Assembly: GCA_934434555.1 (NCBI GenBank)
Contig: CAKRZX010000002.1
Span: forward strand, 22,376-86,375
Length of the DNA: 64,000 nt
Reading direction: 5' to 3'
Source: an uncultured Clostridia bacterium
GTDB taxonomy: Bacteria; Bacillota; Clostridia; Christensenellales; QALW01
In this document: positions 14,636-34,292 of the stretch, piece by piece
Layout of the letters: every line of letters starts with the position of its first letter
Position numbering within the stretch: the first letter of the stretch is position 1
Notes under the pieces: generated by a model
What the model was told of the DNA's origin: nothing
Database searches by the model: none
The model's input: only the letters and a program-made list of their open reading frames with translations
Translations under genes and position numbers: made by a program

Positions 14636-14664
14636 TTGACATTCACCGATTTTTGGCGTATTAT
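14636..14664 (+). promoter_or_regulatory. Sigma-A-like promoter of the EPS operon leader
   Basis: The layout is TTGACA (14636-14641), a 17-nt spacer, then TATTAT (14659-14664). Confidence 0.5.
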
Positions 14665-14680
14665 AATGCTATATAATTTA

Positions 14681-14750
14681 ATAGGGGTAAACTCATTGAA
14701 AGATGAGGACACAAAGTCATTGTGCCTAAGGTTTATTACTACGGTTGACA
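14681..14750 (+). promoter_or_regulatory. c-di-GMP-I (GEMM-I) riboswitch-like aptamer
   Basis: The sequence ataGGGGTAAACTCATTGAAAGATGAGGACACAAAGTCattgtgCCTAAGgtttattacTACGGtTGAC parallels the Vibrio Vc2 aptamer as I recall it (GGGCAAACCATTCGAAAGAGTGGGACGCAAAGCC..CCTAAAC..). It has a 6-bp hairpin capped by a GAAA tetraloop. It also has the ACACAAAG junction and a near-canonical 11-nt tetraloop receptor (CCUAAG/UACGG) in the second hairpin. Confidence 0.7.
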
Positions 14751-14798
14751 GACTGCAATTTCTGCAAGGTTTTCTTGCACATATTGCAGTCTTTTTTT
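14751..14798 (+). terminator. Intrinsic terminator (riboswitch expression platform)
   Basis: The outer stem is GACTGCAAT...ATTGCAGTC and the inner stem is TGCAAG/CTTGCA, followed by T7. It directly abuts the aptamer. Confidence 0.8.
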
Positions 14799-14876
14799 AT
14801 TGCTTTGGGCGCAAAAATTTCGCAAAAAGAAGATTTCGGCAGTTTCAGCGCGGCTTGTGCGGGATTTTTGATTTCA

Positions 14877-15218
14877 ATGCTGCTGTTTTTGGGCGAGTTT
14901 GTGTTCGTTTCAAAAATGAAATGGCATCTCGGGTGCGATATGTATCTCTGCCTTATTCCGTGTGCGTACTTTCTCTTGAAAGCGGCACTTGCAGGCAAAA
15001 TACAAATTGCCGACGGCGGAATTTTAAGGCAGCACAGTTCGCTTATATATTTTGCCCATATGTTCTGTGCGGAAATCTGCTGGATTTTAACACCTGTTGA
15101 AAACGCAAATTCACTTGTTATGTTTTTGATTATATTTGCTCCTACGGTTTTGCCTGATACGGCAATAATCTTTGCGGCAAAGTCAAAAAGACTGAGTTTT
15201 ATAAAAAGGTTTTATTAA
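14877..15218 (+). CDS. Small hydrophobic ORF, possibly a remnant of an acyltransferase-3-type gene
   Basis: This is an in-frame M downstream of the terminator within track ORF 14745..15218. The C-terminal part (SLIYFAHMF...LIIFAPTVL) is membrane-like. There is no convincing RBS, so the call is weak. Confidence 0.3.
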   Translation: MLLFLGEFVFVSKMKWHLGCDMYLCLIPCAYFLLKAALAGKIQIADGGILRQHSSLIYFAHMFCAEICWILTPVENANSLVMFLIIFAPTVLPDTAIIFAAKSKRLSFIKRFY

Positions 15219-15230
15219 GAGGAAGAAAAG

Positions 15231-16745
15231 TTGGGCAAATACGCAAGAAAGATAAAATTCAATATCTTATCGGTAGTGCTTTGCCAAATTGTCACCGTAG
15301 CCGTGGGCTTTATCCTGCCGAGAATTTATATAGAAAACTTCGGTTCCGCGGTAAACGGAGTGCTTTCAACAATAAAGCAGATTTTTACCTACCTTTGCCT
15401 TTTGGAAGCGGGGGTGGGGCTGGCAACATCGCAGGCGCTGCTTAAACCCGTTGCCACGGGCGACAAAGATAAAATAAACAGCATTCTTGCCGCAACAAAA
15501 AAGCATTACACAAAAATCGGCATTATTTATTCTGCCTCTATTGTGCTTATCGGCGTTGTTTACGGATTCTTTGTAAATACGGGAATGAATCCTTTTACCG
15601 TTGTTGCGCTTGTTCTCTTAAACGGAATACCGTCGCTTATAACTTTCTTCATTCAGGGCAAGTATTGCATTTTGCTTGAAACCGACGGTATGCAGTATGT
15701 TATAACAAATTCGCAAACGGTTTTGCAGACCGTAAGCGGACTTCTTAAAGCGGCAGTACTGCTTTTGACAAACAATCTTATACTTATGCAGGCGTCATAT
15801 TGCCTTGTTGCGTCGGCGCAGCTTATCTATGTAACGCTTTACGCGCGGCGGCGCTATAAATGGCTTGATTTTTCGGTTTCTCCCGATTCAGGCGCAATAT
15901 CGCAAAAGAATTCCGTACTCGTGCACCAGATATCGGCAATGGTTTTCAATAATACCGACATTTTGCTTCTGTCGTTTTTAACCGATTTTTCAACGGTAAG
16001 TGTTTATTATATCTACAATCTGTTCTTTTCGCAGGTTGAAGCATTTACAAGCAGTGTTGTAAAGGGATTCAATTTCGCCTTGGGGCAGTTGTTCTCCGTT
16101 GACAGGCAAGCGTTTATAAAAAAGTTCAGGATTTATGAAAGCCTTTACGTTACCGCAAATTTTATCGTTTATACTTTGATGTGTGTTTTCCTTTTACCGG
16201 TGATACAGATTTATACCGGAGGAATAAACGACGCGAATTATATCAACCCTGCGCTTGTGCTTCTGTTTGCGGTTGCTAAAATGATTTCCGCGGCAAAGAT
16301 ACCCGTAAGTCAGATTATTGAGTATTCGGGAAGTTTTAACGCCACTAAGTGGCACGCCGTCTGCGAAATGATTATAAACCTGACTTTCACCGTCGGCGGA
16401 ATTTTTGCTTGGGGCATTTGCGGTGCTCTTGCCGGTACGGTTGCGGCAATAGCTTTCAGGTACTTTGCCGCCGTGGTTTTCGCAAACAAAAAAGTGCTTA
16501 TGCGTTCGGCAAAGGACAGTTTTTTACTTTTTGCCGTAAACGCAGCGGTTTTTTTGATTGTTTTTTTAGTGTTTAATACAACGCATTTTTGCAATCTGGG
16601 ATTTTGGAAACTTTGTCTTAACGGTGTGATTCATATGCTTTGGATAATACCGTTATACGTGCTTGCAAACTTTGTTCTGCGTCCCGACGTATATAAAAAT
16701 TTGATTTTAAGCCTGAAAGGCAGAAAAAATGAAAGAGATAATTAA
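15231..16745 (+). CDS. wzx: Polysaccharide flippase (Wzx, MOP superfamily)
   Basis: The 504-aa polytopic protein has a TTG start after aagagga, a typical Wzx length and profile, and an EPS locus context. Confidence 0.85.
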   Translation: MGKYARKIKFNILSVVLCQIVTVAVGFILPRIYIENFGSAVNGVLSTIKQIFTYLCLLEAGVGLATSQALLKPVATGDKDKINSILAATKKHYTKIGIIYSASIVLIGVVYGFFVNTGMNPFTVVALVLLNGIPSLITFFIQGKYCILLETDGMQYVITNSQTVLQTVSGLLKAAVLLLTNNLILMQASYCLVASAQLIYVTLYARRRYKWLDFSVSPDSGAISQKNSVLVHQISAMVFNNTDILLLSFLTDFSTVSVYYIYNLFFSQVEAFTSSVVKGFNFALGQLFSVDRQAFIKKFRIYESLYVTANFIVYTLMCVFLLPVIQIYTGGINDANYINPALVLLFAVAKMISAAKIPVSQIIEYSGSFNATKWHAVCEMIINLTFTVGGIFAWGICGALAGTVAAIAFRYFAAVVFANKKVLMRSAKDSFLLFAVNAAVFLIVFLVFNTTHFCNLGFWKLCLNGVIHMLWIIPLYVLANFVLRPDVYKNLILSLKGRKNERDN

Positions 16746-17256
16746 AAAAGATTTATATCGGTACTACGGCGGAAAGGAACCGCTTGCAAAACGGATTTTC
16801 CGCAAGCCGGAAATAAAATTCATTATTGCCCTGAGGCGTGCTCACAACAGCAAAAATCCGATGAGGCATTTAAGGCTCTTGTATCTTTCACATAAAACGG
16901 GAATACAGATTCCAGCAAAAACCGAAATCGGCGAGGGCTTTTATATCGGGCATTTCGGAAGAGTGATAATAAACCCGAATTGCGTTTTGGGCAAAAATAT
17001 AAACATTGCAACCGGCGTAACGCTCGGGCAGGAAAATCGCGGCGCGCGGAAGGGTTCGCCGAAGATAGGCGATAACGTGTGGATAGGTACAAACGCAGTG
17101 GTCGTCGGCAATATAACCGTGGGAAGCGATGTTTTGATCGCACCCCTTGCATATGTTAATTTTGATGTTCCCGACCACAGCATAGTTATCGGGAATCCCG
17201 CAAGGATAATCAAAAGGGAAAACGCAACCGAAAGTTATATTAACAACAAGGTGTAA
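16729..17256 (+). CDS. Left-handed beta-helix O-acetyltransferase (serine acetyltransferase-like)
   Basis: Hexapeptide repeats are present: IGEGFYIGHFGRVIINPNCVLGKNINIATGVTLG...IGDNVWIGTNAVVVGNITVGSDVLIA. Confidence 0.85.
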   Translation: MKEIIKKDLYRYYGGKEPLAKRIFRKPEIKFIIALRRAHNSKNPMRHLRLLYLSHKTGIQIPAKTEIGEGFYIGHFGRVIINPNCVLGKNINIATGVTLGQENRGARKGSPKIGDNVWIGTNAVVVGNITVGSDVLIAPLAYVNFDVPDHSIVIGNPARIIKRENATESYINNKV

Positions 17257-17259
17257 ACG

Positions 17260-18000
17260 ATGAGCATACCGAAAGTGATTTATTATTGCTGGTACGGCAA
17301 AAATCCGTTGCCGAAATCGGTAAAAAAGTGCATGGAATCGTGGGAAAAGCAATGCCCGGAATATAAAATTGTCCGCATTGACGAAACGAATACCGATATT
17401 AACGAAAATGAATATGTTTCTCAGGCTTATTCCGCCGGCAAGTGGGCATTCGTAAGCGATTATTTCAGGCTTAAAGCAGTTTATGAGAACGGCGGAGTCT
17501 ATCTTGACACCGATGTTGAACTTATAAAAAGCCTTGATTGCCTGACGGAAAAATATGACGGCTTTTTCGGCTTTGAGCAGGGGAAAAATCTTATTGCCAC
17601 CGGGCTTGGGTTCGGGGCAAAAAAGAATAACAAATTCGTTAAGGCAATGCTTGATTCTTATGAAAACATTACGTTTTTTGATTCTTCCGGCAAAGCCGAC
17701 GAAACACCGTGTCCCGAAAGGAATACCGCTGCGCTTGTCAAAATGGGGGTTGACACGCAAAAGCGGAACCAGGTAATAGATAACGTTTGTTTCTTGAAAG
17801 AAGAAGTACTTTGCCCGATAAATTTTTTTACCGGCAAAAAGAAAATAACGAAAGACACGGTTTCCGTGCATCATTACGGCGCGTCCTGGTGCAGCGATGT
17901 CACAAGGCGCACGTTAAGGCTCAAAAAAATAATCGGAATTAAGAATTACAGCATTCTTTACGGGAAACTTCTTCATAAATCAAACAGGTGGGAATGGTAA
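17260..18000 (+). CDS. Glycosyltransferase, GT32-like (DXD)
   Basis: IYYCWYGKNPLP...WAFVSDYFRLKAVYENGGVYLDTDVE is a typical capsular GT32/OCH1-like signature. Confidence 0.8.
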   Translation: MSIPKVIYYCWYGKNPLPKSVKKCMESWEKQCPEYKIVRIDETNTDINENEYVSQAYSAGKWAFVSDYFRLKAVYENGGVYLDTDVELIKSLDCLTEKYDGFFGFEQGKNLIATGLGFGAKKNNKFVKAMLDSYENITFFDSSGKADETPCPERNTAALVKMGVDTQKRNQVIDNVCFLKEEVLCPINFFTGKKKITKDTVSVHHYGASWCSDVTRRTLRLKKIIGIKNYSILYGKLLHKSNRWEW

Positions 18001-18680
18001 TGCAGTATATCGATATCGAGAAAATCGATGGAAAGACCGCGAGCAGATTGGAGAGAATAATAGAAAAATCCTATGCTTCGTACTGGAAAAAGAAACGGGC
18101 GTTTGATATAATCGCCGCAACGCTTTTGCTTATTCCGCTTTTCGTGCCGATTTTGATTATGGCGCTGATTATATTTATTGACGACCCTCACGGAAATCCT
18201 TTTTATAAGCAGGTGCGTATCGGGCGTCACGGAGAGGAATTCTATATGTACAAGTTCCGTTCAATGCACGTTGACGCTGATAAACGCAAGAAAGAACTGC
18301 TTGATAAAAACGAAATGGACGGACCTGTTTTTAAGATAAAAAATGACCCGAGGGTTACAAGGGTGGGAAAAGTGATAAGAAAGTTTTCAATAGACGAACT
18401 GCCGCAGTTGTTTAATGTTTTTGCGGGTAATATGAGCCTTGTAGGACCGCGTCCGCCGCTTCCTGAGGAGGTGGAAAAGTACACCGATTATGATAAACTC
18501 CGCCTTATAGTTACTCCGGGGATAACCTGCACATGGCAGATCTCAAAAAACAGAAACGATGTTTCATACGAAAAATGGCTTGAAATGGACCTTGATTACA
18601 TAGAACACCGAACAACATGGGGAGACATAAAAATTATACTTAAAACTCCCATTGCAATGCTTGAAGCCACAGGGAGATAG
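18000..18680 (+). CDS. Initiating phosphoglycosyltransferase (bacterial sugar transferase, small monotopic PGT)
   Basis: FKFRSM...DGPVFKIKNDPRVTRVG..IDELPQLFNVFAGNMSLVGPRPP matches the family. I chose the ATG at 18000 (TAATG overlap, aggtggga RBS). GTG at 17988 and ATG at 17994 are alternatives. Confidence 0.9.
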   Translation: MQYIDIEKIDGKTASRLERIIEKSYASYWKKKRAFDIIAATLLLIPLFVPILIMALIIFIDDPHGNPFYKQVRIGRHGEEFYMYKFRSMHVDADKRKKELLDKNEMDGPVFKIKNDPRVTRVGKVIRKFSIDELPQLFNVFAGNMSLVGPRPPLPEEVEKYTDYDKLRLIVTPGITCTWQISKNRNDVSYEKWLEMDLDYIEHRTTWGDIKIILKTPIAMLEATGR

Positions 18681-18681
18681 A

Positions 18682-19812
18682 ATGAAAATATCAATGATAG
18701 GGCATAAGGCCGTGCCGTCAACAAGAGGCGGAATAGAAACGGTGCTTACAAACCTTTGCCCGATTTTAGTAAAAAAGGGAGCGGAAGTCGTATGCTTCAA
18801 CCGAAGTTCCGACCGCGCTGAACCGGAATTTATCAGTGAAATTAAGGACGGGAAATACAAAGACGTTACAATTAAGAAGGCGGGTACACTGAACATAAAC
18901 GGAGTTTCCGCGTTGCTTGCGTCCTTTTCGGCGGCATTTGCCTGCCTCTTTAATAAAAGCGACATAATACACTTTCACGCCGAGGGTCCGTCGGCAGCAA
19001 TATTTCTGCCGAAAATGTTCGGTAAAAAATGCGTTGCCACGGTTCACGGGCTTGACTGGCAGAGGGATAAGTGGAAAAACGGCTTGGGCGCAAAGTATAT
19101 TAAGTTCGGCGAAAAAATGATTGCAAAGCACGCCGACGGAATTATAGTTTTAAACCGCAGTACAAAAGATTATTTCAAAAAAACGTATAACCGTGATTCC
19201 GTAATTATTTATAACGGCGTGAATAATCCCGAAATAATTGACGATGATATAATTTCCGCAAAATTCGGACTGAAAAAGGACGGTTATATATGCGTTGTTG
19301 CAAGGCTTACCGAGGAAAAGGGAATCCTCTGCCTTATAGATGCATTTAAGGGAATAAAAACGGATAAAAAACTTGTTATCTGCGGCGAGGGAAACGGCGA
19401 TTACACGAAAAAATTGAAAAAGGCGGCAGAGGGAAATGAGAATATTATCTTTACCGGGTTCATTTCCGGAATAACGCTTGCGTCAATGTATTCAAGTGCG
19501 TATCTTGTCTGTCAGACGTCCAATATTGAGGGTATGTCAATAAGCCTTTTGGAGGCGCTTTCCTATTCAAATGCGGTGCTGTGTTCGGATATTCCGGAAA
19601 ATTCCGATGTGTGCGGCGGGAATGCCGTATATTTCCGAAAAAACGACAGCGGCGACTTAAAAGAAAAACTTGAAATGATGCTGAATAATAAAGATGTTGT
19701 TGAAAAACTCAGGCTTACTGCATCGGAAAGTGTTCTTTCAAGATTTTCCTGGGAAAAGAACGCCGAACAGACACTTGAATTCTATGAAAATATACTGAAA
19801 GGGGCAAATTGA
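18682..19812 (+). CDS. GT4 family glycosyltransferase
   Basis: MKISMIGHKAVPSTRGGIETV begins the protein, and an EX7E-type motif (EGMSISLLEALS) is present. The start was moved to 18682. Confidence 0.88.
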   Translation: MKISMIGHKAVPSTRGGIETVLTNLCPILVKKGAEVVCFNRSSDRAEPEFISEIKDGKYKDVTIKKAGTLNINGVSALLASFSAAFACLFNKSDIIHFHAEGPSAAIFLPKMFGKKCVATVHGLDWQRDKWKNGLGAKYIKFGEKMIAKHADGIIVLNRSTKDYFKKTYNRDSVIIYNGVNNPEIIDDDIISAKFGLKKDGYICVVARLTEEKGILCLIDAFKGIKTDKKLVICGEGNGDYTKKLKKAAEGNENIIFTGFISGITLASMYSSAYLVCQTSNIEGMSISLLEALSYSNAVLCSDIPENSDVCGGNAVYFRKNDSGDLKEKLEMMLNNKDVVEKLRLTASESVLSRFSWEKNAEQTLEFYENILKGAN

Positions 19813-21020
19813 ATATGAACGAAGTTTTCAGGCATATTTGCTTGCAGGCGGAAAAAACACTTTCAGCAGAAGAACTTGATTTGTTGAAAAATACGTTTAC
19901 GCTTATAAAATGTGACGGCAACCTGTTTGTGTTCGGATACAGGGACAAAGCCGCGTACAATGAATTTTTGGCAAAAAACAAGAATGCTTTGCGCAGCGCG
20001 TGCGGCGAGGTCTGCGGACAGATGCCCGATATAAGGTTCAGATTTTTGAAGAAAAAACGCGAAAGCGAAGATAAGCGTGAAAAGAACTGTAAAAAAGGTA
20101 TAAAAAATGTAGTTGCGTCGCTTATCTGCCTTGTACTTGCATTTGTTTTGGGTGTTATAAGCGTAAACTATATAGCAAACAGAAATTTTAAGGAAGATTT
20201 CTATTCCGTAAGCATAGCGCGGACGGCTGAAAATTTCAGGGTGATTCAACTTTCCGACCTGCACAACTGCTCTTACGGAACGGACAACAAAAATCTGCTT
20301 GACAGAATTACAAAACTCAGACCCGATATCATCGTTCTTACCGGCGACTGCCTTGACGAAAACGGCGATGTTGAACAGATTGTCCGCTTCTGCCGTGCTT
20401 TAAGGGAAATTGCTCCCGTGTATTATATTTACGGCAATAATGAGTGCAGACGGGCATTTTCATCGGTTATGACACTTGAAAGTCTTGATTCGCTTATAGA
20501 CGCAACGGACGAAAACAGAGATGTAAAAAAACTTTACGCTCTTGACAACGGCTTAAAAGCAACGCTTGAATCGAGCGGCATAAAGGTGCTGTTTAACGAA
20601 AGCGACAGCATTACGGTGGGAGAAAACAAAATCCGTATTTTCGGAACGCTCACGTCAAACCCGTCGGCATTCTGGCAGTATGCGGGAGCGGAATTCAGCA
20701 AATTCATAACGGAAAACAGCGATGAAATCAAACTGTTTCTATGCCACGAACCGCTGCTTATCGAAACGATAAAAGAGCCTTATTGGGGCGATTTGGTGCT
20801 TTCGGGCGATACTCACGGGGGAGAAGCGAGAATCCCCGGATTGGGCGCGGTGTATTCACGATCTTTCGGGTTTTTCCCCGAAAGAAGCAAGCATATGATA
20901 TACGGAAAATATACTTCCGGCGATTCACAGGTAATAGTAAGTTCGGGGCTTGAAAACAAAAACCCTTTAAGGATATTCAATCAGCCCGAAATAGCGATAA
21001 TCGACATTAACAAGTATTAA
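19809..21020 (+). CDS. Membrane-anchored calcineurin-like metallophosphoesterase with a DnaA-N-like N-terminal domain
   Basis: Phosphoesterase motifs are present: LSDLHN, LTGDCLDE, GNNE, LCHEP and SGDTHGG. A single TM (VVASLICLVLAFVLGVISV) lies in the middle. The roughly 80 N-terminal residues follow the DnaA domain I pattern. ATG at 19815 is an alternative start. Confidence 0.8.
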   Translation: MNMNEVFRHICLQAEKTLSAEELDLLKNTFTLIKCDGNLFVFGYRDKAAYNEFLAKNKNALRSACGEVCGQMPDIRFRFLKKKRESEDKREKNCKKGIKNVVASLICLVLAFVLGVISVNYIANRNFKEDFYSVSIARTAENFRVIQLSDLHNCSYGTDNKNLLDRITKLRPDIIVLTGDCLDENGDVEQIVRFCRALREIAPVYYIYGNNECRRAFSSVMTLESLDSLIDATDENRDVKKLYALDNGLKATLESSGIKVLFNESDSITVGENKIRIFGTLTSNPSAFWQYAGAEFSKFITENSDEIKLFLCHEPLLIETIKEPYWGDLVLSGDTHGGEARIPGLGAVYSRSFGFFPERSKHMIYGKYTSGDSQVIVSSGLENKNPLRIFNQPEIAIIDINKY

Positions 21021-21035
21021 GGAGGTGCTTTTTGA

Positions 21036-27857: not shown

Positions 27858-27859
27858 AA

Positions 27860-28858
27860 ATGCTCTTTTCGGTCATAGTTCCCGTTTACGGGGTCGAAAA
27901 ATATCTTCGGGAGTGCGTTGACAGCATTTTAATGCAGAATTTTACCGATTTTGAACTGATACTTGTTGACGACGGCTCAAAGGATTCCTGTCCCGAAATT
28001 TGCGACGGGTACGCAAAAAAGGACGGCAGAGTAAAAGTAATACATAAGGAAAACGGCGGACTTGTAAGCGCGAGAAAAGCGGGAATGCGCCGGGCAGAGG
28101 GAGAGTATATAATAAACATCGACGGCGACGACGCTGCTATGCCGGGGTATTTTGAAAAAGCGGCGGAGATAATTTGCAAAAATTCTCCGGATATAATCAC
28201 GTTCGCAGTCAACTTTGTGTCGGGCGGAGATGTGAAAACGGATGAAGAACCTCTTAAAGAGGGACTGTACACGGATATGCGTCCCATACACGAAAATATG
28301 CTTTTAACGCCCGATATGCACCATATGCATTATTTTCTGTGGGCAAAAGTGTTCAGAAAATCGGTCATAGAGGAAATACAACTTAACGCAGATGAGCGCA
28401 TAAGTATGGGCGAGGACGTTATGTGCGTTGCAAAGGCGTACATACGCGCAAAAAGCGTGTTCGTTTCAAAATCGGCAATGTACAACTGCCGCTGCCGCGA
28501 GGGGTCTATGTCCCGTGCGTATAAGTCAACGCATTTTGACGATATTGCTCTCGGCGTAAAAGAACTTAAAGAGATAAAAAATCCGCCCGAAAATTTTGCT
28601 TGCGCGGTTGACAGATATGCTGCATTTATGTTCTTTGTGATTTTTGCGACTGCCGCAAAAGAAAAAGAAAAAAATGTGTGTGAATATTCAAAACAGGTGT
28701 GGTATAATGGTTTTGATAAATCTTTTAAGAATTCGGAATTTAAGAATATATCGCCGAAAAGCAGAATGGCAACGGCACTCTTAAAAAAGAGACGGTTTCT
28801 GCTTGCGTATCGCTTTTTGCGGATATGCGACAGGCTGAAGGGAAACAAAAATGCCTGA
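27860..28858 (+). CDS. GT2 family glycosyltransferase
   Basis: FSVIVPVYGVEKYLRECVDSILMQNFTDFELILVDDGSKD and NIDGDD are present. Confidence 0.88.
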   Translation: MLFSVIVPVYGVEKYLRECVDSILMQNFTDFELILVDDGSKDSCPEICDGYAKKDGRVKVIHKENGGLVSARKAGMRRAEGEYIINIDGDDAAMPGYFEKAAEIICKNSPDIITFAVNFVSGGDVKTDEEPLKEGLYTDMRPIHENMLLTPDMHHMHYFLWAKVFRKSVIEEIQLNADERISMGEDVMCVAKAYIRAKSVFVSKSAMYNCRCREGSMSRAYKSTHFDDIALGVKELKEIKNPPENFACAVDRYAAFMFFVIFATAAKEKEKNVCEYSKQVWYNGFDKSFKNSEFKNISPKSRMATALLKKRRFLLAYRFLRICDRLKGNKNA

Positions 28859-29852
28859 AATTTCGGTTGTAATGGCTGTGTATAACGGCGAAAAATATAT
28901 CAGAGAAGCCCTTGACAGCATTCTGAAACAGACGTTCACTCTGTTTGAGGCAATAATCATTGATGATGCGTCTGTTGACGCTACGCCCGAAATTCTCTCG
29001 GAATATGCAAAAAAGGACAGCCGTATAAAGGTTTTCACCAACGAAAGCAATCAGCGCCTTGCAAAGTCCCTTAACAGGGGAATAGCACTTGCAAAGGGCA
29101 AGTATATTCTGCGAATGGACGCCGATGATATCTGCCTTAAAGACAGGTTTGAAAAGCAGTATGAATATATGGAATCCCATAAGGATACCGATGTATCGTT
29201 TTGCAAATTCTTTGCCAAAAAAGAAAACGAAATTATTCCCTGCTGTGTGGGAAGAAAGTGCGATTTTGAAAGCATAAAGGCAATGTTCCTCTTTTTCTGC
29301 CCGGTTCTTCACCCGGGAGTAATCGCAAAAAGCGAGGTTATGAAAAAGTACGGGTACGACCCGGAGCATACCTGCTCGGAAGATTTGGATTTGTGGATGC
29401 GTATGATTTCCGACGGCAGAAAAATAGAGTGCGAGGACGACTATCTTATGCTTTACCGGCTGCATTCTTCTCAAATTACGGCAAACAGCAGCCGGAAACA
29501 GAAAGAAGAAGTGCTGAAAAGCGAAAGAAAATATTTTTCCGCAATGAACATATCGATTCCGGACGAAGAATTCTATATAAACGGCGTTTATTTTCGCGAA
29601 AGATTTGATGAAAGTAAAATGCGGGAATTCCGTGCTGCGGTTACGGGCGGCGGAAAAATTAAAAAAAGCGCAATATTAAACGCTTTTACGGAAGTGCTTG
29701 CCGAATATCGGCGCGGCGGCGAACGGGGAGTATTGCGTCTTGCGGGAATAAAACTTGCGGTGCTTGGCGCTTTTAAGAAAATAAGAAACTCAAAGGACAG
29801 AAAAAAAGCGCAGATTGCCGCAGCAAATGCAGGGATAGAGATAACAGGGTGA
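28851..29852 (+). CDS. GT2 family glycosyltransferase
   Basis: ISVVMAVYNGEKYIREALDSILKQTFTLFEAIIIDDASVD and RMDADD are present. Confidence 0.88.
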   Translation: MPEISVVMAVYNGEKYIREALDSILKQTFTLFEAIIIDDASVDATPEILSEYAKKDSRIKVFTNESNQRLAKSLNRGIALAKGKYILRMDADDICLKDRFEKQYEYMESHKDTDVSFCKFFAKKENEIIPCCVGRKCDFESIKAMFLFFCPVLHPGVIAKSEVMKKYGYDPEHTCSEDLDLWMRMISDGRKIECEDDYLMLYRLHSSQITANSSRKQKEEVLKSERKYFSAMNISIPDEEFYINGVYFRERFDESKMREFRAAVTGGGKIKKSAILNAFTEVLAEYRRGGERGVLRLAGIKLAVLGAFKKIRNSKDRKKAQIAAANAGIEITG

Positions 29853-29856
29853 AAGA

Positions 29857-31224
29857 ATGAACGAAAACTATATTTTAATAATTTTTATAATTGTGTTCTT
29901 TGCACTGTTTGCATTCGGGCTTATGTTTATTTCCCGTGCGCTGAAACAGTTCAACGGCAAAAAACGTGCGGGATTTGAGCCGCTTCTGTACGTTCAGCGG
30001 CGGTACGACAAAATCCGCAAAATATCGAGAATACCTTGCGGCGTGCTTTACATTACGGCAGGCAACGGCGATATGGAGAAAGTTTCACGCAATGAAAGCG
30101 GACTTTTTGAGCACCTCGGCGAAACTCTGCTTGCGTCCTTTGACGGCAAAGACGACCTGGTTTCAAAGATAAATTCAAAAGAATACGTCGTGCTTACAAG
30201 AATGAGCGAACCGCAGATGAACAGCGTTACCAAACAGATACTGCACGATACGGTGCTGTATTCAAAAGCGAATCCCGACGTGCCGGGCATAAAAATAAGT
30301 TTCGGAGCTTATCTTATTCCGGCAAGCAACGTGGATTTTGACGAAACGGTTGCCCGCGCAAAACTTGCCTGTATTGAATCAAAAAACAGTTCAAGGACGT
30401 ACGTTGCGTGGGATTATAATCTTCAATGCGATTACGATAACCGAGTAATGATAGAAAAAAATCTTAAAAACGGGATTGAAAACAACAACTTCTTCCTTGA
30501 ATTTCAGCCGATAATCGATATCGTAAGCGGGAACATCACCGGCGGAGAGGTGCTTTCAAGGCTTAACGGGGAATCAAAAGTGCTTCTGCCCGCAGACTTC
30601 ATTTCCGTTGTAAAAGACAAGAATATGGATTTTGAATTTGACTGCTACGTGTTTGAAAAGACCTGTCAGTGGGTTTCGGCACACCCCGAGCCCTGCGGAT
30701 TTTTAGACCACGTTTCGGTAAACTTTTCGCGCAGCACTCTTGCAACAAAGGACGCGGCGGAAAAACTGCTTGCAATAGCCGGCGGCTACGGCATTGACAG
30801 GACGTTTATCGCCATAGAGGTGCTTGAAGACGAAAGCGGCGGCTCTTTTAACACGGAAAACATCCGCGAGAACATGAAGATAATAAAGGAGGCGGGAATG
30901 ACCGTATTGCTTGACGATTTCGGCGACGGCTATTCTTCCTTTGACGACCTTAAAAATTTCCCTGCGGACATAATAAAAATAAGCAAATCCGTTACGGAAA
31001 ATATCGAAACGCAGTTGGGCGAAAGAATCTTCAAAAGCATTGCAACCATGGCGAAAAGTATGAAAGTCCAGGTTATCTGCGAGGGGGTGGAAACGCTTGA
31101 ACAGATAGAAATTCTGCGAAAAAACGGGATAAGATTCGTGCAGGGGTACTATTTCTTCCGCCCGCAAAGTCCCAACCAGTTTGAAAAGGCAGTATTAAAT
31201 AACAGAACAAGGAGAGTACAATAA
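29857..31224 (+). CDS. Membrane-anchored degenerate-GGDEF / EAL domain protein (putative c-di-GMP phosphodiesterase)
   Basis: It has an N-terminal TM (ILIIFIIVFFALFAFGLMFI) and a GGDEF-like fold with NSKEY at the GGDEF position. The EAL domain keeps the core motifs EFQPII..GGEVLSR, SVNFS, AIEVLEDE, DDFGDGYSS, IIKISKS, EGVETLEQ and QGYYFFRP. Confidence 0.85.
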   Translation: MNENYILIIFIIVFFALFAFGLMFISRALKQFNGKKRAGFEPLLYVQRRYDKIRKISRIPCGVLYITAGNGDMEKVSRNESGLFEHLGETLLASFDGKDDLVSKINSKEYVVLTRMSEPQMNSVTKQILHDTVLYSKANPDVPGIKISFGAYLIPASNVDFDETVARAKLACIESKNSSRTYVAWDYNLQCDYDNRVMIEKNLKNGIENNNFFLEFQPIIDIVSGNITGGEVLSRLNGESKVLLPADFISVVKDKNMDFEFDCYVFEKTCQWVSAHPEPCGFLDHVSVNFSRSTLATKDAAEKLLAIAGGYGIDRTFIAIEVLEDESGGSFNTENIRENMKIIKEAGMTVLLDDFGDGYSSFDDLKNFPADIIKISKSVTENIETQLGERIFKSIATMAKSMKVQVICEGVETLEQIEILRKNGIRFVQGYYFFRPQSPNQFEKAVLNNRTRRVQ

Positions 31225-31225
31225 T

Positions 31226-31870
31226 ATGAAAGTAAGTTTGTTTGGCTATAACCGTAAGGAAACGGACGATTATTTTAACTATCTTAACGAAAACAACAAT
31301 ACGCAGGCGGGAGAGATAAAGCGTCTGAGTGCCGAACTTGAAGCGGCGAAAAGGGAAGTTGAGGAATATAAACAACTTGATGAACTGAATAAGCGCGAGA
31401 TAGAAAGCCTGAAAGACAGAATCTGCGACTGCAAACTTGACGAAGACGAGCATAAAAAGCAGATAGACGAACTTTCGCGCCGTTTAAGCGAGAAAAAGGG
31501 TGCAGATGAAACCGAGAAACTTGGTATAATTTTCGCCGTTGCTTACAGGGACATAGAAAACAAGAACAAGGCGGTAAGCGAAAAAATAAGAGCTTATGCC
31601 GATATGATGTTTGACCGTATGAACCGCTACCGTGATGAAGTGGGCAAGATAGTGGATTCGGTTACATATATGCAGAACAGGCAGAAAGAAGAACTTGCAC
31701 GGCTCTGCGCGGAAGCGACCGAAAAACTTGATTTGCTTACAAAGGCTTCAAACAATACGGTTGAAGATATGAAAAAGATAGAGGAGAGCCGCGGAAACAT
31801 CTGCGGTGAAATAGAAAATATGCTCAGGGAAACCGCTAACACCGCGGTTTTGGAGGAAAAGAACCTTTAA
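31226..31870 (+). CDS. Coiled-coil protein with a DivIVA-like N-terminal motif
   Basis: The N-terminal LFGYNRKETDDYFNYL resembles the DivIVA/GpsB F..GY...EVD.FL motif. The rest is heptad-rich. Confidence 0.5.
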   Translation: MKVSLFGYNRKETDDYFNYLNENNNTQAGEIKRLSAELEAAKREVEEYKQLDELNKREIESLKDRICDCKLDEDEHKKQIDELSRRLSEKKGADETEKLGIIFAVAYRDIENKNKAVSEKIRAYADMMFDRMNRYRDEVGKIVDSVTYMQNRQKEELARLCAEATEKLDLLTKASNNTVEDMKKIEESRGNICGEIENMLRETANTAVLEEKNL

Positions 31871-31884
31871 TACGGAGGGTAAAA

Positions 31885-33414
31885 ATGGACTGTGCACTTA
31901 TGAAAAAGATAAAAACGTCGGATAAATATGCGTTTGTAAGCACTTTCGTTTTCGGGCTTATTGCGCACTTTTACCGTATGACAAACTGGCTTCCCAACTG
32001 GGATTCGCTTGTGTTCCGTGCGGACACGCAGCATATGGAGCCGCTTGGCAGATGGTTTTTGCCCTACGCGTCCCTTATAAGCACGGAATACGAACTTCCG
32101 TGGCTTAACGGGCTGCTTGCGCTTTTATATTTAAGCGTTGCCGCCGTATTTGTATCAAGAATTTTTGATATGGAAAACAAAGTTGCGGTCTGTCTTTTGG
32201 GCGGAATCACAGCCGCGTTCCCGACGGTAACTTCAACGTTTACCTACTGCTACGTTGCCGACGCATACGCGCTTTCGTTCCTTTTTGCCTGCATTGCGGC
32301 GTATCTTTTAGCCAAAAAAAGTCGCATTGCGGCGATATTTTCCGCAGTTTTAATAACGCTTTCAATGGGAATATATCAGGCATACGTAACGGTTACGGTA
32401 TCGCTGCTGCTATGTTTTTTGATAATAAATTTGCTTTCGGGAAAAAAAGATGCAGCGTCAGCCGTAAAAAGCGGCGCAAAATACTTCCTTTGCGGCGCGG
32501 CGGCATTTTTAATGTATTATATCGTTCAGAAAACAGTCACCGCGGTTATGCATATTGAGGCATCGGACTATCAGGAATTCTCACAAACGCTTTTGTTCAG
32601 GGAAACAGATATTCTTTCGGCAATTCCCGCATCGCTGTATCTGTTCATTCACTTTTTTGCGGATTTTTCAAAGGGATTCAATCTTTATTCGGCGGTAAAC
32701 GTGCTTGTGTTTTTATTTCTTGCGGCGGGATATCTTACGGTTATGATAAAAAATCTGCGGGGCGCGGGGAAAATCATTCTTACGGTTGTTTTAATTCTCT
32801 GCATTCCGTTCGGCTGTACCGCCCTGTATTTTGCAAATATCAATATTGACTATCACTGCCTTATGAAAATGGGGTTCTTTATAGTTTACGTTTATCTTAT
32901 TCTGCTGTTTGAAAAGTTTGATTTTGTTAAACTTGACACGGTAAAAAAGTGGGGGATAACGGCACTTTGCGGACTGCTTATCTTCCTTAATATCCGCACT
33001 GCAAACGTGACGTATCACAAATTGCAGATTTCTTTTGAAAAATCATACGGCATACTTATCAGAATTGCGGACAGAATGGAATCCCTTGACGGTTTCGAAA
33101 ACGCCGAAAAAATTCTTGTGGTGGGCGAACTTGAAAATTCAAAAGCGTATTCGGTTGATTTTCCGCCGGAGATTACCGGCACCACCGACGGGCTGATTAT
33201 AAGAAAAGACGATGAAACCGTACATCAAAGCGTGCTTACGGCGGCGCTTAAAGATTACTGCGACATTGAACTTGATTTCCTTTTCGGGCAGGAGGCGAAA
33301 GATATGAGGGAAAGCGAGCGCGTTAAGAATATGCCCTGCTGGCCCGCGCGGGATTCGGTTGCGATTTTTGAAAATACTGTTATAGTTAAATTGAGTGACG
33401 GGGAAGAAAAATGA
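31885..33414 (+). CDS. Polytopic membrane protein, GtrII/ArnT-like candidate extracytoplasmic glycosyltransferase
   Basis: The 509-aa protein has about 10 or more TM segments and a C-terminal soluble domain. The N-terminal FVFGLIAHFYRMTNWLPNWDSL...LGRWFLPY resembles the Glucos_trans_II family as I recall it. A GtrB-like partner lies at 13627. Confidence 0.55.
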   Translation: MDCALMKKIKTSDKYAFVSTFVFGLIAHFYRMTNWLPNWDSLVFRADTQHMEPLGRWFLPYASLISTEYELPWLNGLLALLYLSVAAVFVSRIFDMENKVAVCLLGGITAAFPTVTSTFTYCYVADAYALSFLFACIAAYLLAKKSRIAAIFSAVLITLSMGIYQAYVTVTVSLLLCFLIINLLSGKKDAASAVKSGAKYFLCGAAAFLMYYIVQKTVTAVMHIEASDYQEFSQTLLFRETDILSAIPASLYLFIHFFADFSKGFNLYSAVNVLVFLFLAAGYLTVMIKNLRGAGKIILTVVLILCIPFGCTALYFANINIDYHCLMKMGFFIVYVYLILLFEKFDFVKLDTVKKWGITALCGLLIFLNIRTANVTYHKLQISFEKSYGILIRIADRMESLDGFENAEKILVVGELENSKAYSVDFPPEITGTTDGLIIRKDDETVHQSVLTAALKDYCDIELDFLFGQEAKDMRESERVKNMPCWPARDSVAIFENTVIVKLSDGEEK

Positions 33415-34241
33415 AGATTTACTTCTGTGCCGACGATTTCGGATTATCACCCGAAAGCGACGGGCATATAAAAGAGTGCAAAGTAAATAAAATAAGCGTG
33501 CTTGCAAATTTTGATGCGGATCTTTCGGAATTAAACGCAAAGGTTTCCACACACATAAATTTTGTTGAGGGCAAGTGCGTAAGCGACAAAAATCTGATTC
33601 CGCTGCTTGTTGACGAAAACGGATATTTCAAACACACGTTCGGGGGCTTACTTAAATTATCTTTGGGCAAGACAGGAAAGGCGTTCAGGCAGCAGGTAAA
33701 GACCGAAATGCGGGCGCAGATAAATAAAGTAAATGCGCCGGAAATGATAGACAGCCATCAGCACGTGCATATGATTCCCGCAATTTTTTCCTGTCTTTGC
33801 GAGATAATAAAAGAGGACGGGCTGCAAACAGAGTATCTGCGGATTCCCGCAGAGCCGGTATTGCCGTACATTTCGGCACCGGAACTTTATAAGAGTTATT
33901 TTTCGCTGAATTTTATCAAACAGCAGACGCTTAAATTTCTTAATCTTTTTAACAAGAGCAAATTAAAAAGTATGGGACTTAAACAAAACGACTTTTTCGG
34001 AATAATGTTTTCGGGCAATATGAATGAAAAACGGGTAAATCGTTTGCTTAATGCGTTTGTAAGGCACGCGGAAAGGAAAAACAGAGATTTGGAAGTGCTG
34101 TTTCACCCCGGGTTTGTTGAAACGGCAGAGGGGAAAAATGTGATGAAAGAATATAAATTCAGCACGTTTTATCTCGCTGATGGGCGGAAAAAAGAGTTCC
34201 TTGCGGCAAAAAACATTGCAAAAGACGAAAAAATGCCGTAA
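33411..34241 (+). CDS. ChbG/HpnK (YdjC-like) carbohydrate deacetylase
   Basis: MKIYFCADDFGLS and DSHQHVHMIP metal-binding motifs are present. Confidence 0.8.
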   Translation: MKIYFCADDFGLSPESDGHIKECKVNKISVLANFDADLSELNAKVSTHINFVEGKCVSDKNLIPLLVDENGYFKHTFGGLLKLSLGKTGKAFRQQVKTEMRAQINKVNAPEMIDSHQHVHMIPAIFSCLCEIIKEDGLQTEYLRIPAEPVLPYISAPELYKSYFSLNFIKQQTLKFLNLFNKSKLKSMGLKQNDFFGIMFSGNMNEKRVNRLLNAFVRHAERKNRDLEVLFHPGFVETAEGKNVMKEYKFSTFYLADGRKKEFLAAKNIAKDEKMP

Positions 34242-34286: not shown

Positions 34287-34292
34287 ACATTC

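Follow-up and report, generated by a model that had tools for sequence, protein, structure and literature searches.

A polysaccharide operon with c-di-GMP-related regulatory parts

How is polysaccharide synthesis controlled in an operon in which Pfam and NCBIfam domain searches find no LCP, BY-kinase, CpsB-type phosphatase or transcription-factor domains? The locus that raises this question lies in a 64,000-nucleotide stretch of DNA (the window) from an uncultured gut Clostridia bacterium, and the polysaccharide system that it encodes is real. Domain searches combined with the list of open reading frames place 17 co-directional plus-strand genes of a Wzx/Wzy-type pathway at 15231-34241. The recognizable regulatory parts are all c-di-GMP related and, in these respects, the analysis agrees with the original prediction and with most of its domain calls. 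We consider it reasonably probable that the locus is a c-di-GMP-switched, Wzx/Wzy-dependent heteropolysaccharide operon, with an assembly module and EAL-mediated feedback, of an Oscillospirales-type Clostridium. Apart from the assembly module and the EAL gene, the array comprises the following.

15231-16745, plus strand: polytopic membrane protein (at least nine hydrophobic segments), probable MOP-family flippase (Wzx)
16729-17256, plus strand: hexapeptide-repeat acetyltransferase (Hexapep, 45 bits)
17260-18000, plus strand: GT32-like glycosyltransferase with DXD (Gly_transf_sug, 57 bits; Caps_synth, 48 bits)
17988-18680, plus strand: initiating polyprenyl-phosphate sugar-phosphate transferase (PGT; Bac_transf, 219.9 bits)
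18652-19812, plus strand: GT4 glycosyltransferase (Glycos_transf_1 and Glyco_transf_4)
24309-25574, plus strand: Wzy-type polymerase (Wzy_C, 41.9 bits against a cut-off of 31.7)
25589-26809, plus strand: GT4 glycosyltransferase (domain search)
26763-27857, 27860-28858 and 28851-29852, plus strand: three tandem GT2 glycosyltransferases (Glycos_transf_2, 130-135 bits each)
31226-31870, plus strand: soluble coiled-coil protein with a weakly DivIVA-like N terminus
31885-33414, plus strand: GtrII-like polytopic glycosyltransferase (Glucos_trans_II, 168.9 bits)
33411-34241, plus strand: YdjC/ChbG-family deacetylase-like protein (YdjC, 108.6 bits)

The earlier assignment of the first gene as Wzx fits its polytopic profile, the NCBI name of its homologs ([quoted passage not shown]) and a weak hhalign match, consistent in position, to a Polysacc_synt protein, although Pfam, NCBIfam and PDB profiles gave no match. 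The “DivIVA-like” label of the coiled-coil protein holds only as a sub-threshold N-terminal similarity (DivIVA, E 0.019), and its orthologs are confined to close loci. The GtrII-like protein is presumed to modify the glycan on the outer face.

Neighboring genes in the array are separated by 1-15 nt or overlap slightly; the longest-ORF list gives two longer overlaps, of 29 and 47 nt, but these vanish with the alternative starts of the gene callers. From 14865 to 34512 no hairpin-plus-U-tract terminator was found. The data agree with one transcription unit that probably ends at 34531 rather than at 34241, where the operon had been thought to stop; the gene array stands, but the unit would continue through a tail to the only strong plus-strand terminator past the riboswitch.

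34242-34540, plus strand: structured 3′ tail with a terminator (34513-34531) plus T-run and a promoter-like site (34258-34286)

The tail has a fold z-score of -3.85, belongs to no Rfam family and resembles nothing in the loci from other species, most of which end within their clusters.

A c-di-GMP-I riboswitch precedes the operon

14636-14664, plus strand: sigma-70-type promoter-like site, TTGACA-17-TATTAT (11 of 12 consensus matches)
14676-14760, plus strand: c-di-GMP-I riboswitch aptamer (Rfam RF01051, full length, 59.9 bits against a gathering score of 35)
14750-14799, plus strand: intrinsic terminator serving as expression platform (from folding; stem 14750-14792, then U7)
14796-15218, plus strand: 3′ remnant (pseudogene) of an acyltransferase-3 gene

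The leader, previously described as riboswitch-like, is a true c-di-GMP-I riboswitch. In an alignment of 12 homologous instances, 94% of cells pair, as against 24-45% in slid controls, and 13 of the 21 pairs show compensatory changes. Related loci have a TTGACA/TAT(T/A)AT element at the corresponding place before the aptamer, and relatives without an aptamer have one before the operon. The terminator, with a folding energy of about -20 to -21.5 kcal/mol, overlaps through its 5′ arm the last 5 nt of the 3′ strand of aptamer helix P2 (14748-14754). This overlap recurs in all 26 riboswitch loci compared, namely the present one and 25 related ones, with differing stem sequences (AGACUGCAAU, GGCCGCAA, AGCUGCAAU), and from it we infer that c-di-GMP is the ON signal for the operon. 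When folding was constrained to enforce the aptamer, the only hairpin possible was a shortened one, detached from the U-tract.

The small open reading frame that follows, previously listed as doubtful, aligns with 46% identity to residues 207-351 of an intact 351-aa gene in a related locus (L012; Acyl_transf_3, 75 bits). By this alignment it is a 5′-truncated acyltransferase-3 pseudogene; the gene is intact in every other close locus (sister species).

Two PCP paralogs, a dead GGDEF domain and a metallophosphoesterase

19809-21020, plus strand: membrane-anchored, single-pass metallophosphoesterase, YaeI/LpxG-like (Metallophos, 42.5 bits)
21036-22400, plus strand: PCP-like protein without a cytoplasmic domain (TM-ectodomain-TM profile), paralog of the 22413-24293 product
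22413-24293, plus strand: PCP-like 626-aa protein (TM1, ectodomain, TM2) with a C-terminal GGDEF domain at residues ~465-626 (GGDEF, 50 bits)

The larger PCP-like protein, a presumed co-polymerase acting in chain length and export, for which an AF2 model has a pLDDT of 82, is predicted to have a Wzc/Wzz-like fold. The best PDB matches of its N-terminal domain are all PCPs, that is, Wzc (E 4.4e-5), WzzE, KpsE and FepE, at a TM-score of 0.25 and large rmsd, while its C-terminal domain matches diguanylate cyclases. Its paralog aligns with its N-terminal part (BLASTP E 3e-8) and with the equivalent gene in a distant locus, L135 (27% identity, E 3e-31). Pfam Wzz matches neither PCP-like protein of the window; relatives of both give sub-threshold Wzz matches, and the equivalent of the paralog in L133 scores 24.5 bits against a cut-off of 25.5. 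Whereas PCP-2a proteins carry a BY-kinase in the cytoplasm, the PCP described here has a GGDEF domain at that place.

Judged by its residues, this GGDEF domain is catalytically dead. Its motif reads NENTHF, and YNGxGQF across the family, and the RxxD I-site, the GG(D/E)EF motif, the acidic catalytic residues and the Mg-binding Asp are absent. Known degenerate-GGDEF receptors use the RxxD I-site, in contrast to the present domain, and because both RxxD and the acidic catalytic residues are gone, no known mode of c-di-GMP binding is recognizable in it. Thus, its proposed part as a c-di-GMP regulator is reduced to an unproven sensing hypothesis. YNGxGQF is nevertheless strongly conserved down to ~25% identity, with the guanine-contact Asn and the Gly-Asp positions retained. 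The metallophosphoesterase resembles YaeI (75 bits) and LpxG (64 bits) in NCBIfam, in each case below the cut-off. A K/R-rich segment precedes its TM helix (residues 101-119), and by the positive-inside rule alone its catalytic domain is predicted to face outward.

The EAL protein and a GtrB-like gene upstream

29857-31224, plus strand: membrane-anchored EAL protein (EAL, 186 bits; TM helix 6-24)
13627-14541, plus strand: GtrB/PgfS/ArnC-like polyprenyl-phosphate glycosyltransferase (Pfam GT2; C-terminal TM helices 226-244 and 261-279)

The EAL protein had been described as GGDEF-EAL. Its EAL domain looks catalytically intact, but GGDEF is not significant in Pfam in its N-terminal half, which is poorly conserved and possibly GGDEF-derived; the sole sequence support for that half comes from NCBIfam alignments to GGDEF-EAL phosphodiesterases, which begin at residues ~87-107. 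Since the EAL catalytic motifs are all at least 90% conserved among 65 orthologs, the protein is probably a feedback c-di-GMP phosphodiesterase.

The GtrB-like gene lies just beyond the region covered by the original prediction. This gene comes with a separate promoter-like site (13570-13598) and terminator (14535-14578); it lies upstream of the riboswitch promoter and is not under riboswitch control. Its product scores 252.6 bits against PgfS and 154 bits against the ArnC-type family in NCBIfam, each below the equivalog cut-off. It is likely the partner of the GtrII-like gene, and its ortholog stands at the 3′ end of the cluster in distant relatives. The description of the locus as self-contained does not hold: no cyclase is encoded, the GtrB-like partner is outside the riboswitch unit, and the window contains no GtrA.

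Conservation and gene order in relatives

The layout of a riboswitch-led operon with a dead GGDEF domain replacing the kinase on a PCP is conserved in well over 100 gut species, and this kinase-less arrangement is apparently undescribed. Precomputed Pfam annotation shows no BY-kinase, CpsB or LCP domains in the related loci checked. A trio of PCP-GGDEF (or PCP-EAL), a second PCP paralog like the 21036-22400 product, and the metallophosphoesterase is conserved in unrelated Wzx/Wzy loci with otherwise different glycosyltransferases, in which no BY-kinase appears. The phosphoesterase gene adjoins PCP-GGDEF/EAL in loci L133, L135 and L136, and in P0201 the enzyme is fused, after a TM helix, to the PCP-GGDEF protein. 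Some relatives, such as P0237, have in place of the GGDEF domain an EAL domain with partly degenerate catalytic residues.

Of 39 resolved loci, ~26 carry the riboswitch. It is missing from 5 of 14 close relatives with the same promoter and from ~8 distant ones, which retain the rest of the locus, so that transcriptional control by c-di-GMP would be dispensable. Riboswitch, PCP-GGDEF and EAL thus do not co-vary, as had been envisaged; the latter two are constant. In some relatives, an intact-motif diguanylate cyclase (RMGGDEF) lies directly upstream of the riboswitch, which is also flanked by an extra EAL gene; the order there is GGDEF protein, riboswitch, EAL280 and the remaining operon. In two loci (L063 and L115), a GGDEF-PAS-GGDEF-EAL gene abuts the cluster. 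Collectively, these comparisons strengthen the link of the operon to c-di-GMP.

A model for the switch and its alternatives

Built on the observed switch architecture and product domains, our model of the switch logic, product roles and circuit runs as follows. A constitutive-looking promoter would fire into the c-di-GMP-I aptamer. Without ligand, the strong intrinsic terminator would form, taking the last 5 nt of P2; with c-di-GMP bound, P2 would be held and the base of the terminator beside the U-tract lost, allowing read-through of ~19.8 kb to 34531. The pathway proper would consist of the PGT, six cytoplasmic glycosyltransferases, the flippase, Wzy, acetylation and deacetylation enzymes and the GtrII outer-face modifier, served by a noncanonical assembly module of the two PCPs, one with the cytoplasmic dead GGDEF domain, and the outward-facing membrane phosphoesterase. 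The substrate of this enzyme may be the lipid-pyrophosphate-linked polymer, which it could release; such release would be in keeping with a locus that has no LCP ligase. The dead GGDEF domain might couple polymerization or export to nucleotide state, either as a binding site for a guanine nucleotide or as a dock for the EAL protein. After the operon has been switched on, the EAL enzyme would lower c-di-GMP and so feed back negatively or buffer the nucleotide locally at the assembly machinery.

Four other readings bear on parts of this model. Control could be transcriptional only, through the riboswitch and an EAL sink, with the PCP pair setting chain length and the GGDEF domain a structural relic or oligomerization module that senses no nucleotide. 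Many degenerate GGDEF domains are scaffolds, and the loss of RxxD, GG(D/E)EF and the Mg-binding Asp points the same way; however, the conserved YNGxGQF, together with the kept guanine-contact residues, favors a preserved site for a ligand or partner, and the replacement of GGDEF in some relatives by EAL, another c-di-GMP-binding fold, also speaks against this possible but less favored reading. Somewhat more doubtful is that the product is not a released exopolysaccharide but a cell-envelope glycopolymer (capsule or secondary cell-wall polysaccharide) or a protein-glycosylation glycan, with the phosphoesterase and the GtrB/GtrII/PgfS-like genes decorating the envelope. More than 50 species-level genomes share the full glycosyltransferase set at ~50% protein identity; conservation of this kind is uncommon in hypervariable EPS/CPS loci and typical of core envelope polymers. 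The closest similarity of the GtrB-like protein is to PgfS, which belongs to a streptococcal protein-glycosylation system. Against this, no LCP ligase is encoded in the locus, nor any oligosaccharyltransferase besides the Wzy_C protein, and riboswitch gating and the lost acetyltransferase gene argue for a conditional, nonessential polymer.

Clostridia are known to have class I c-di-GMP riboswitches of either polarity, and the unconstrained MFE structure of the leader already includes the terminator, as would suit an OFF switch in which c-di-GMP favors termination and polysaccharide is made at low c-di-GMP. We regard this as very unlikely: it needs a separate antiterminator competing with the aptamer, whereas here, in every locus compared, the 3′ strand of the aptamer itself doubles as the 5′ arm of the terminator. 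Moreover, a cyclase upstream and an EAL gene downstream of the riboswitch in relatives make sense as induce-then-degrade, and an OFF switch would run contrary to the general rule that high c-di-GMP leads to EPS production (PMC8461298). The ON switch that we favor could still act on only part of the array if the assembly or late genes had internal promoters that bypass the riboswitch. Units of 19 kb commonly contain internal promoters, and promoter-like matches occur within the array (for example, 18084-18112, 19884-19911, 26214-26242 and 33748-33775). Such a split, which would have undone the single operon originally proposed, is nonetheless unlikely: internal terminators are lacking, the matches are at the chance level expected from shuffling (26 against 22.9±5.1, and 23 against 19.5±4.4), and the short or overlapping junctions leave no room for regulatory regions.

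Results and Discussion

A c-di-GMP-I Aptamer Heads a Putative Wzx/Wzy Operon

The leader that the original prediction had called riboswitch-like contains a full-length c-di-GMP-I aptamer (14676–14760), which covers positions 1–87 of 87 of the Rfam covariance model RF01051 and scores 59.9 bits against a gathering score of 35; aptamers from related loci score 60–67 bits on the same model. The aptamer starts 12 nt downstream of a promoter-like TTGACA-17-TATTAT site (14636–14664), and a hairpin of about −20 kcal/mol (14750–14792) follows, ending in seven U residues. The 5′ arm of this hairpin takes in the last five nucleotides of the 3′ strand of aptamer helix P2 (14748–14754), and when the aptamer is enforced during folding only a shortened hairpin, apart from the U-tract, remains. 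From this geometry we infer a transcriptional switch that is ON in the presence of ligand. Across the aptamer alignment 94% of cells are paired (24–45% in slid controls), 13 of 21 pairs have changes on both sides, and 0 of 500 shuffles reached the observed pairing score, values that are to be read with the fact that the alignment was fitted to the model, which favors the structure. The unpaired G before P1 is invariant in the aptamer instances and the GC after P2 is kept in all 26 platforms; these map to what we take to be G20 and C92 in Vc2 numbering, presumably positions that contact c-di-GMP rather than cGAMP, and the contact nucleotides thus appear compatible with c-di-GMP as the ligand.

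Downstream, 17 tightly packed ORFs occupy the + strand from 15231 to 34241, with Pfam and NCBIfam domains mostly as predicted.

Principal members of the operon array
15231–16745, + strand: gene 1, probable wzx
Within 15231–34241, + strand: hexapeptide acetyltransferase, GT32-like enzyme, two GT4 and three tandem GT2 glycosyltransferases (Pfam, NCBIfam)
Within 15231–34241, + strand: Bac_transf initiating transferase (phosphoglycosyl transferase), Pfam 219.9 bits
Within 15231–34241, + strand: Wzy_C protein, Pfam 41.9 bits against a cutoff of 31.7
19809–21020, + strand: Metallophos phosphoesterase (Pfam/NCBIfam)
21036–22400, + strand: g7, polysaccharide co-polymerase (PCP)-like protein
22413–24293, + strand: g8, 626-aa protein with a C-terminal GGDEF domain (Pfam/NCBIfam), here termed PCP-GGDEF
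29857–31224, + strand: EAL protein, 186 bits
31885–33414, + strand: GtrII-like protein, 168.9 bits
Within 15231–34241, + strand: YdjC-family protein

Three of the predicted assignments proved weaker than stated, namely Wzx, the DivIVA-like protein, and the GGDEF half of the EAL protein. Gene 1 is polytopic and its homologs carry the NCBI name [quoted passage not shown] but it has no match in Pfam (even at E ≤ 10), NCBIfam, or the PDB profiles, and its hhalign alignment with a bona fide Polysacc_synt protein is weak (E 0.017, 67 columns). The 214-aa coiled-coil protein matches DivIVA at a sub-threshold E value of 0.019. The Wzy protein has several hydrophobic segments in a simple hydropathy scan, and the pathway encoded by the operon is, by its gene content, of the Wzx/Wzy type, with an as yet unconfirmed candidate for the flippase.

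As predicted, no LytR-CpsA-Psr (LCP), BY-kinase, phosphotyrosine-phosphatase, or DNA-binding domain was found in the array. An AraC-family gene just beyond it (34536–35315, − strand) was considered as a regulator of the operon and set aside, because it runs toward the operon and forms a divergent pair with a GH2 β-galactosidase gene, to which it is assigned.

A scan of the + strand between 13400 and 35400 for hairpins adjoining a U-rich tract, subject to an energy cutoff, found no terminator between 14865 and 34512. Its matches lie upstream of the locus (13424–13463), at the end of a separate GT2 gene (13627–14541, terminator at 14535–14578), at the riboswitch terminator, and downstream of the operon (34513–34531), together with a weak terminator-like element of −8.5 kcal/mol at 14818–14864. 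Promoter-like matches within the array are no commoner than in shuffled sequence. Given the lack of both an internal terminator and an excess of promoter matches, the sequence fits one transcription unit of ∼19.9 kb that ends ∼290 nt past the last gene.

The weak terminator-like element falls within the doubtful small ORF of the original prediction, which can no longer be counted as a gene. The 430 nt between the riboswitch terminator and gene 1 are 46% identical to residues 207–351 of a 351-aa Acyl_transf_3 gene (75 bits) that all other close relatives keep whole between riboswitch and wzx. On this comparison the ORF is a pseudogene remnant, the first ∼200 codons having been deleted in this species.

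A Probable Co-polymerase Fused to a Degenerate GGDEF Domain

PCP-GGDEF has transmembrane (TM) helices at residues 13–31 and 444–462 with a large extracytoplasmic domain between them. Its AlphaFold models (pLDDT 82 and 80) show, in order, TM1, an apparent α/β base with long helical hairpins, TM2, and a GGDEF-fold domain. Because a fold search with the full-length model was swamped by matches to the GGDEF domain, the N-terminal domain was modeled alone; the best PDB matches of the ectodomain are all co-polymerases (Wzc at E 4.4e-5, WzzE, KpsE, and FepE), with low TM-scores. The window proteins have no match to Pfam Wzz (PF02706), even at E ≤ 10, and relatives reach 17–24.5 bits against a cutoff of 25.5. 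The g8 protein is accordingly a probable and well-supported PCP.

Residues 350–376 of the ectodomain hold a cluster of cysteines at the tip of the helical region, of which C360, C364, C369, and C376 are invariant and C350 nearly so; this CxxxCxxxxCxxxxxxC-like pattern could form disulfides or an extracellular metal site. Two further cysteines, C454 and C455, lie in TM2.

The cytoplasmic domain (residues ∼465–626) matches diguanylate cyclases. NENTHF stands in place of the GGDEF motif, the Mg-binding Asp is lost, and SKMN occupies the position of the RxxD inhibitory site (I-site), five residues upstream of the GGDEF position, and the domain is, by these motifs, catalytically dead. The original prediction of a pseudo-GGDEF domain on the PCP holds, and no c-di-GMP site can be recognized in that domain. 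It lacks the motifs of an active cyclase as well as those of I-site receptors such as PelD, PssE, and YdaK. Among 76 family members, extending to ∼25% identity, the motif (G)YNGxGQF is conserved, which argues for a function of the dead domain. The guanine-contacting Asn and Gly-Asp positions are retained. The family has no conserved Asp at the DxD position, and its I-site position reads K/R-[TM]-x-A or is variable.

A Probable Phosphodiesterase Encoded Within the Operon

A single TM helix at the N terminus of the EAL protein is followed by a middle region of low conservation and then the EAL domain. Among 65 orthologs the catalytic motifs QP, EVLxR, NFSR, ExLED, DDFGxG, K, CEGxET, and QGxY are at least 90% conserved, and the window protein has EVLSR, NFSR, EVLED, DDFGDGYSS, KIS, EGVET, and QGY; it is most likely an active phosphodiesterase. 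The EAL part of what had been predicted as a GGDEF-EAL protein has intact motifs. Pfam gives no significant match for the GGDEF half; in NCBIfam, the alignments with GGDEF-EAL phosphodiesterases begin at residues ∼87–107. An ON riboswitch driving a phosphodiesterase gene would amount to negative feedback.

The Locus Family in Uncultured Gut Clostridia

The exact PCP-GGDEF protein was found on 17 metagenome contigs, the protein collection includes over 1000 members of its family, and relatives are encoded in at least 182 GTDB species-representative genomes. A protein-cluster look-up yielded no names. All 80 loci retrieved come from metagenome-assembled genomes of uncultured gut or rumen Clostridia, labeled Ruminococcaceae, Oscillospiraceae, Acutalibacteraceae, Monoglobaceae, or Eubacteriales. 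When the window proteins were searched against these 80 loci with tblastn, nearly the whole gene set, including all glycosyltransferases, was found to be kept down to ∼48% PCP identity. In the group of loci more distant in kinship to the window locus, the GtrII and YdjC genes follow the GT32 gene instead, and the ortholog of the GT2 gene at 13627–14541 sits at the 3′ end, after the EAL gene. The product of this GT2 gene has two C-terminal TM helices and is most like PgfS and ArnC-type polyprenyl-phosphate glycosyltransferases, at scores below the equivalog cutoffs; it is the expected, putative lipid-sugar donor synthase for GtrII. In the window the gene lies upstream of the riboswitch promoter.

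To survey the riboswitch, a covariance model was built from the window and its relatives. A first survey, anchored on the PCP gene with 10-kb flanks, had suggested that the riboswitch is rare (12 of 81 sources). This rarity is an artefact, because the operons of distant relatives start more than 10 kb upstream of the PCP gene; with loci anchored on Wzx the figure rises to ∼26 of the 39 loci with a resolved 5′ end, and the aptamer was found in 26 loci in total. The overlap of terminator and P2 is common to all 26, with differing stem sequences. Several 5′ architectures occur. In the close group the order is promoter, riboswitch, acyltransferase, wzx, and the aptamer is present in nine loci and absent from L008, L009, L011, L013, and L090; the leaders of L009 and L013, the two of these five that were read, have the same promoter with the aptamer missing. 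In distant relatives the gene for a 766-aa membrane protein with RMGGDEF immediately precedes a riboswitch (60–67 bits), which is followed by a stand-alone EAL gene, optionally GtrA, then Hexapep, wzx, and the rest of the locus. This arrangement, in which a cyclase gene precedes the switch and two EAL genes follow, would make the same feedback point more strongly. Other loci have Hexapep, riboswitch, and wzx, or, in L063 and L115, a GGDEF-PAS-GGDEF-EAL gene that abuts the cluster with no riboswitch. A last set has no visible c-di-GMP element upstream, a search with filters off giving noise of 16 bits or less, and L034 has a single weak aptamer match of 23.7 bits.

In some close relatives the aptamer is enlarged: those of L014 (960–1124), L016 (900–1076), L093 (8612–8776), and L092 (8744–8872) score 77–90 bits and carry an insertion of 35–85 nt in the P2 terminal hairpin. 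The 766-aa protein (L087, 6040–8340; L088, 6024–8324; L089, 1048–3345) has an intact RMGGDEF without RxxD, a long N-terminal region that Pfam does not match, and ∼130 aa beyond the GGDEF domain at its C terminus.

PCP-GGDEF and the 455-aa EAL protein are present wherever a locus extends far enough. Since these two are constant and the riboswitch is missing from some loci, the three elements do not covary: the two proteins belong to the core of the locus, to which the riboswitch is a frequent addition that, as these genomes indicate, can be dispensed with. Nor is the locus self-contained, as the window has no cyclase and no GtrA (PF04138, encoded by distant relatives) and the GtrB-like GT2 gene lies upstream of the riboswitch promoter. 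Comparative evidence strengthens the central part of the original prediction, a c-di-GMP-linked polysaccharide operon. Four points of it need amending: self-containment is not borne out, the riboswitch proves dispensable among sister species, the small ORF is a gene remnant, and the pseudo-GGDEF domain shows no c-di-GMP site that can be recognized.

A Candidate Kinase-Less Assembly Trio

A search of 1.8 billion representative proteins with the ectodomain alone returned 625 clusters, whose C termini are mostly GGDEF and sometimes absent; single sampled cases end in an EAL domain whose DNFG and EVSN motifs are degenerate (P0237) or in GGDEF-TM-Metallophos (P0201). We examined five loci of remote members (L133–L137). 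The four long enough to judge are all Wzx/Wzy loci with differing glycosyltransferase sets, and in each of them the PCP fusion has a g7-like protein beside it, together with Metallophos as a gene or as a fused domain. The g7 protein is itself a remote paralog of the g8 ectodomain; it is 27% identical to its equivalent in L135 (E 3e-31), and its L133 counterpart reaches 24.5 bits against Wzz. In the Metallophos proteins the catalytic domain comes after a K/R-rich segment and a single TM helix, and the P0201 fusion adds a TM helix before that domain; on these two grounds the catalytic domain is predicted to face outward. The same topology and the extra helix of P0201 speak against the alternative that the Metallophos protein is a cytoplasmic hydrolase of c-di-GMP or pGpG, since they would place its active domain outside the cell.

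Neither in the 17 genes of the array nor in the related loci surveyed through precomputed Pfam annotation did we find the Walker A/B tyrosine autokinase domain, the separate BY-kinase gene, or the cognate phosphotyrosine phosphatase of a BY-kinase-coupled PCP-2 system, and those related loci have no BY-kinase, CpsB, or LCP domain. On this basis we infer, by analogy, that the trio of PCP-GGDEF (or PCP-EAL), g7-like paralog, and outward-facing metallophosphoesterase may occupy the genomic and architectural niche of CpsC/CpsD/CpsB or Wzc/Wzb. This conserved kinase-less co-polymerase module, seemingly assembled from c-di-GMP-type domains and widespread in uncultured gut Clostridia, is to us the most interesting result of the analysis. 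A further step, which we offer tentatively and regard as rather doubtful, is that in many gut Clostridia the kinase/phosphatase control module (CpsBCD/Wzc-Wzb) has been replaced by this undescribed trio, a hetero-pair of PCPs plus the metallophosphoesterase, which would gate polymerization through a c-di-GMP-type nucleotide. The cytoplasmic GGDEF domain (EAL in some lineages) would then read c-di-GMP or a related guanine nucleotide in a mode other than the I-site, either directly or via the co-encoded membrane EAL protein; the second messenger would gate polymerization and export posttranslationally, on top of the transcriptional control that the riboswitch would provide.

Relation to Known Systems

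Control of exopolysaccharide (EPS) production by c-di-GMP is textbook knowledge for synthase-dependent systems (cellulose, Pel, alginate, and PNAG), and the accepted posttranslational control of Wzx/Wzy pathways is tyrosine phosphorylation. The present loci suggest that there is another solution, in which the co-polymerase draws its cytoplasmic module from the c-di-GMP toolkit, and if the proposed reading of the trio is true, a Wzx/Wzy pathway would for the first time be seen to have a co-polymerase that responds to c-di-GMP. No Wzx/Wzy case appears in a 2021 review of how c-di-GMP controls EPS (PMC8461298), and our literature search, incomplete in coverage, found no description of riboswitch-controlled Wzx/Wzy loci or PCP-GGDEF fusions.

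With the PCP-2a and PCP-2b systems (Wzc-Wzb and CpsC-CpsD-CpsB) PCP-GGDEF shares the TM-ectodomain-TM layout, best structural matches to Wzc/Wzz, a cytoplasmic regulatory domain after TM2, a phosphoesterase neighbor, and a Wzx/Wzy locus. In contrast to those systems, it has no Walker-motif kinase and no tyrosine cluster, its cytoplasmic domain being of the GGDEF fold (EAL in some relatives); the phosphoesterase is of the Metallophos type and predicted to face outward, instead of a cytoplasmic PHP or low-molecular-weight phosphotyrosine phosphatase; and a second PCP paralog is always present. The outward-facing enzyme is a candidate for detaching EPS from its lipid carrier without an LCP ligase in Gram-positive bacteria.

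PelD, PssE, and YdaK bind c-di-GMP via an intact RxxD I-site and serve synthase-dependent pathways. The literature places these degenerate-GGDEF proteins within EPS operons of Gram-positive or Gram-negative bacteria (PMC7112168, PMC4125290, and PMC9800504), and to that extent PelD (Pel), PssE (Listeria Pss), and YdaK (Bacillus ydaJKLMN) share with PCP-GGDEF a membrane-anchored, dead GGDEF domain encoded inside an EPS operon. The protein described here differs in the absence of RxxD, its own YNGxGQF motif, the fusion to a PCP ectodomain, and the Wzx/Wzy pathway; residues 465–626 with YNGxGQF are accordingly a target in the search for a new nucleotide- or partner-binding mode of GGDEF domains. 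The periplasmic part of Alg44 is MFP-like rather than Wzz-like. Alg44, a membrane-spanning co-polymerase whose cytoplasmic c-di-GMP-binding domain controls polymerization posttranslationally (PMC8461298), is the closest functional analog of PCP-GGDEF, from which it differs in its PilZ domain and synthase-dependent pathway.

The leader belongs to the same family (GEMM-I, RF01051) as the c-di-GMP-I transcriptional riboswitches of Firmicutes and has their promoter-aptamer-terminator layout and a surface/biofilm target; here, however, it would gate a 19-kb Wzx/Wzy operon that encodes an EAL phosphodiesterase, and in relatives the element sits between a cyclase gene and an EAL gene. A natural circuit running from cyclase to ON riboswitch to operon-encoded phosphodiesterases would thereby be available. 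As in GtrA/GtrB/GtrII modules, there is a GtrII-family protein (168.9 bits) and a GtrB/PgfS/ArnC-like GT2 with two C-terminal TM helices; unlike them, the window is without GtrA, and its GtrB-like gene is set apart from the operon by the riboswitch promoter. The locus would mark a surface glycan with wide conservation among bacteria that are abundant in human and ruminant guts yet uncultured.

Other Features in and Around the Locus

In L133, just downstream of the PCP-EAL Wzx/Wzy locus, a c-di-GMP-I aptamer of 45 bits (11864–11925) is cut by the contig end and points to another putative c-di-GMP-controlled unit adjoining this remote locus. The other large ORFs of the window that were scanned have no GGDEF or EAL domain.

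The spacer after the operon (34242–34540, + strand, 290 nt) has a strong promoter-like TTGACA-17-TATCAT site with a TG (34258–34286), the terminator at 34513–34531, and a predicted fold of unusual stability (z −3.85). No Rfam family matches it, and the other-species loci, most of which end before that point, contain no similar sequence; it may be part of a 3′ UTR or a small RNA in its own right.

Upstream, a gene for a 591-aa GLUG-motif protein (11697–13472, − strand) is divergent from the GtrB-like gene and is kept beside the locus in three loci of the same species (L001–L003); a GH25 lysozyme-family gene (10939–11652, + strand) adjoins it. Further away, 2324–3988 and 40131–46442 encode a SipL/LysM protein, alanine racemase, a Rex-like regulator, AdhE, and an [FeFe]-hydrogenase-like PAS protein, apparently the housekeeping context of a spore-forming anaerobe. 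A cobalamin riboswitch (49133–49309, + strand; RF00174, 50.1 bits against a cutoff of 31.5) lies upstream of + strand ORFs (49440–57884) that include an ABC ATPase (53829–55484) and a protein with a weak prenyltransferase-toroid match (50613–52451).
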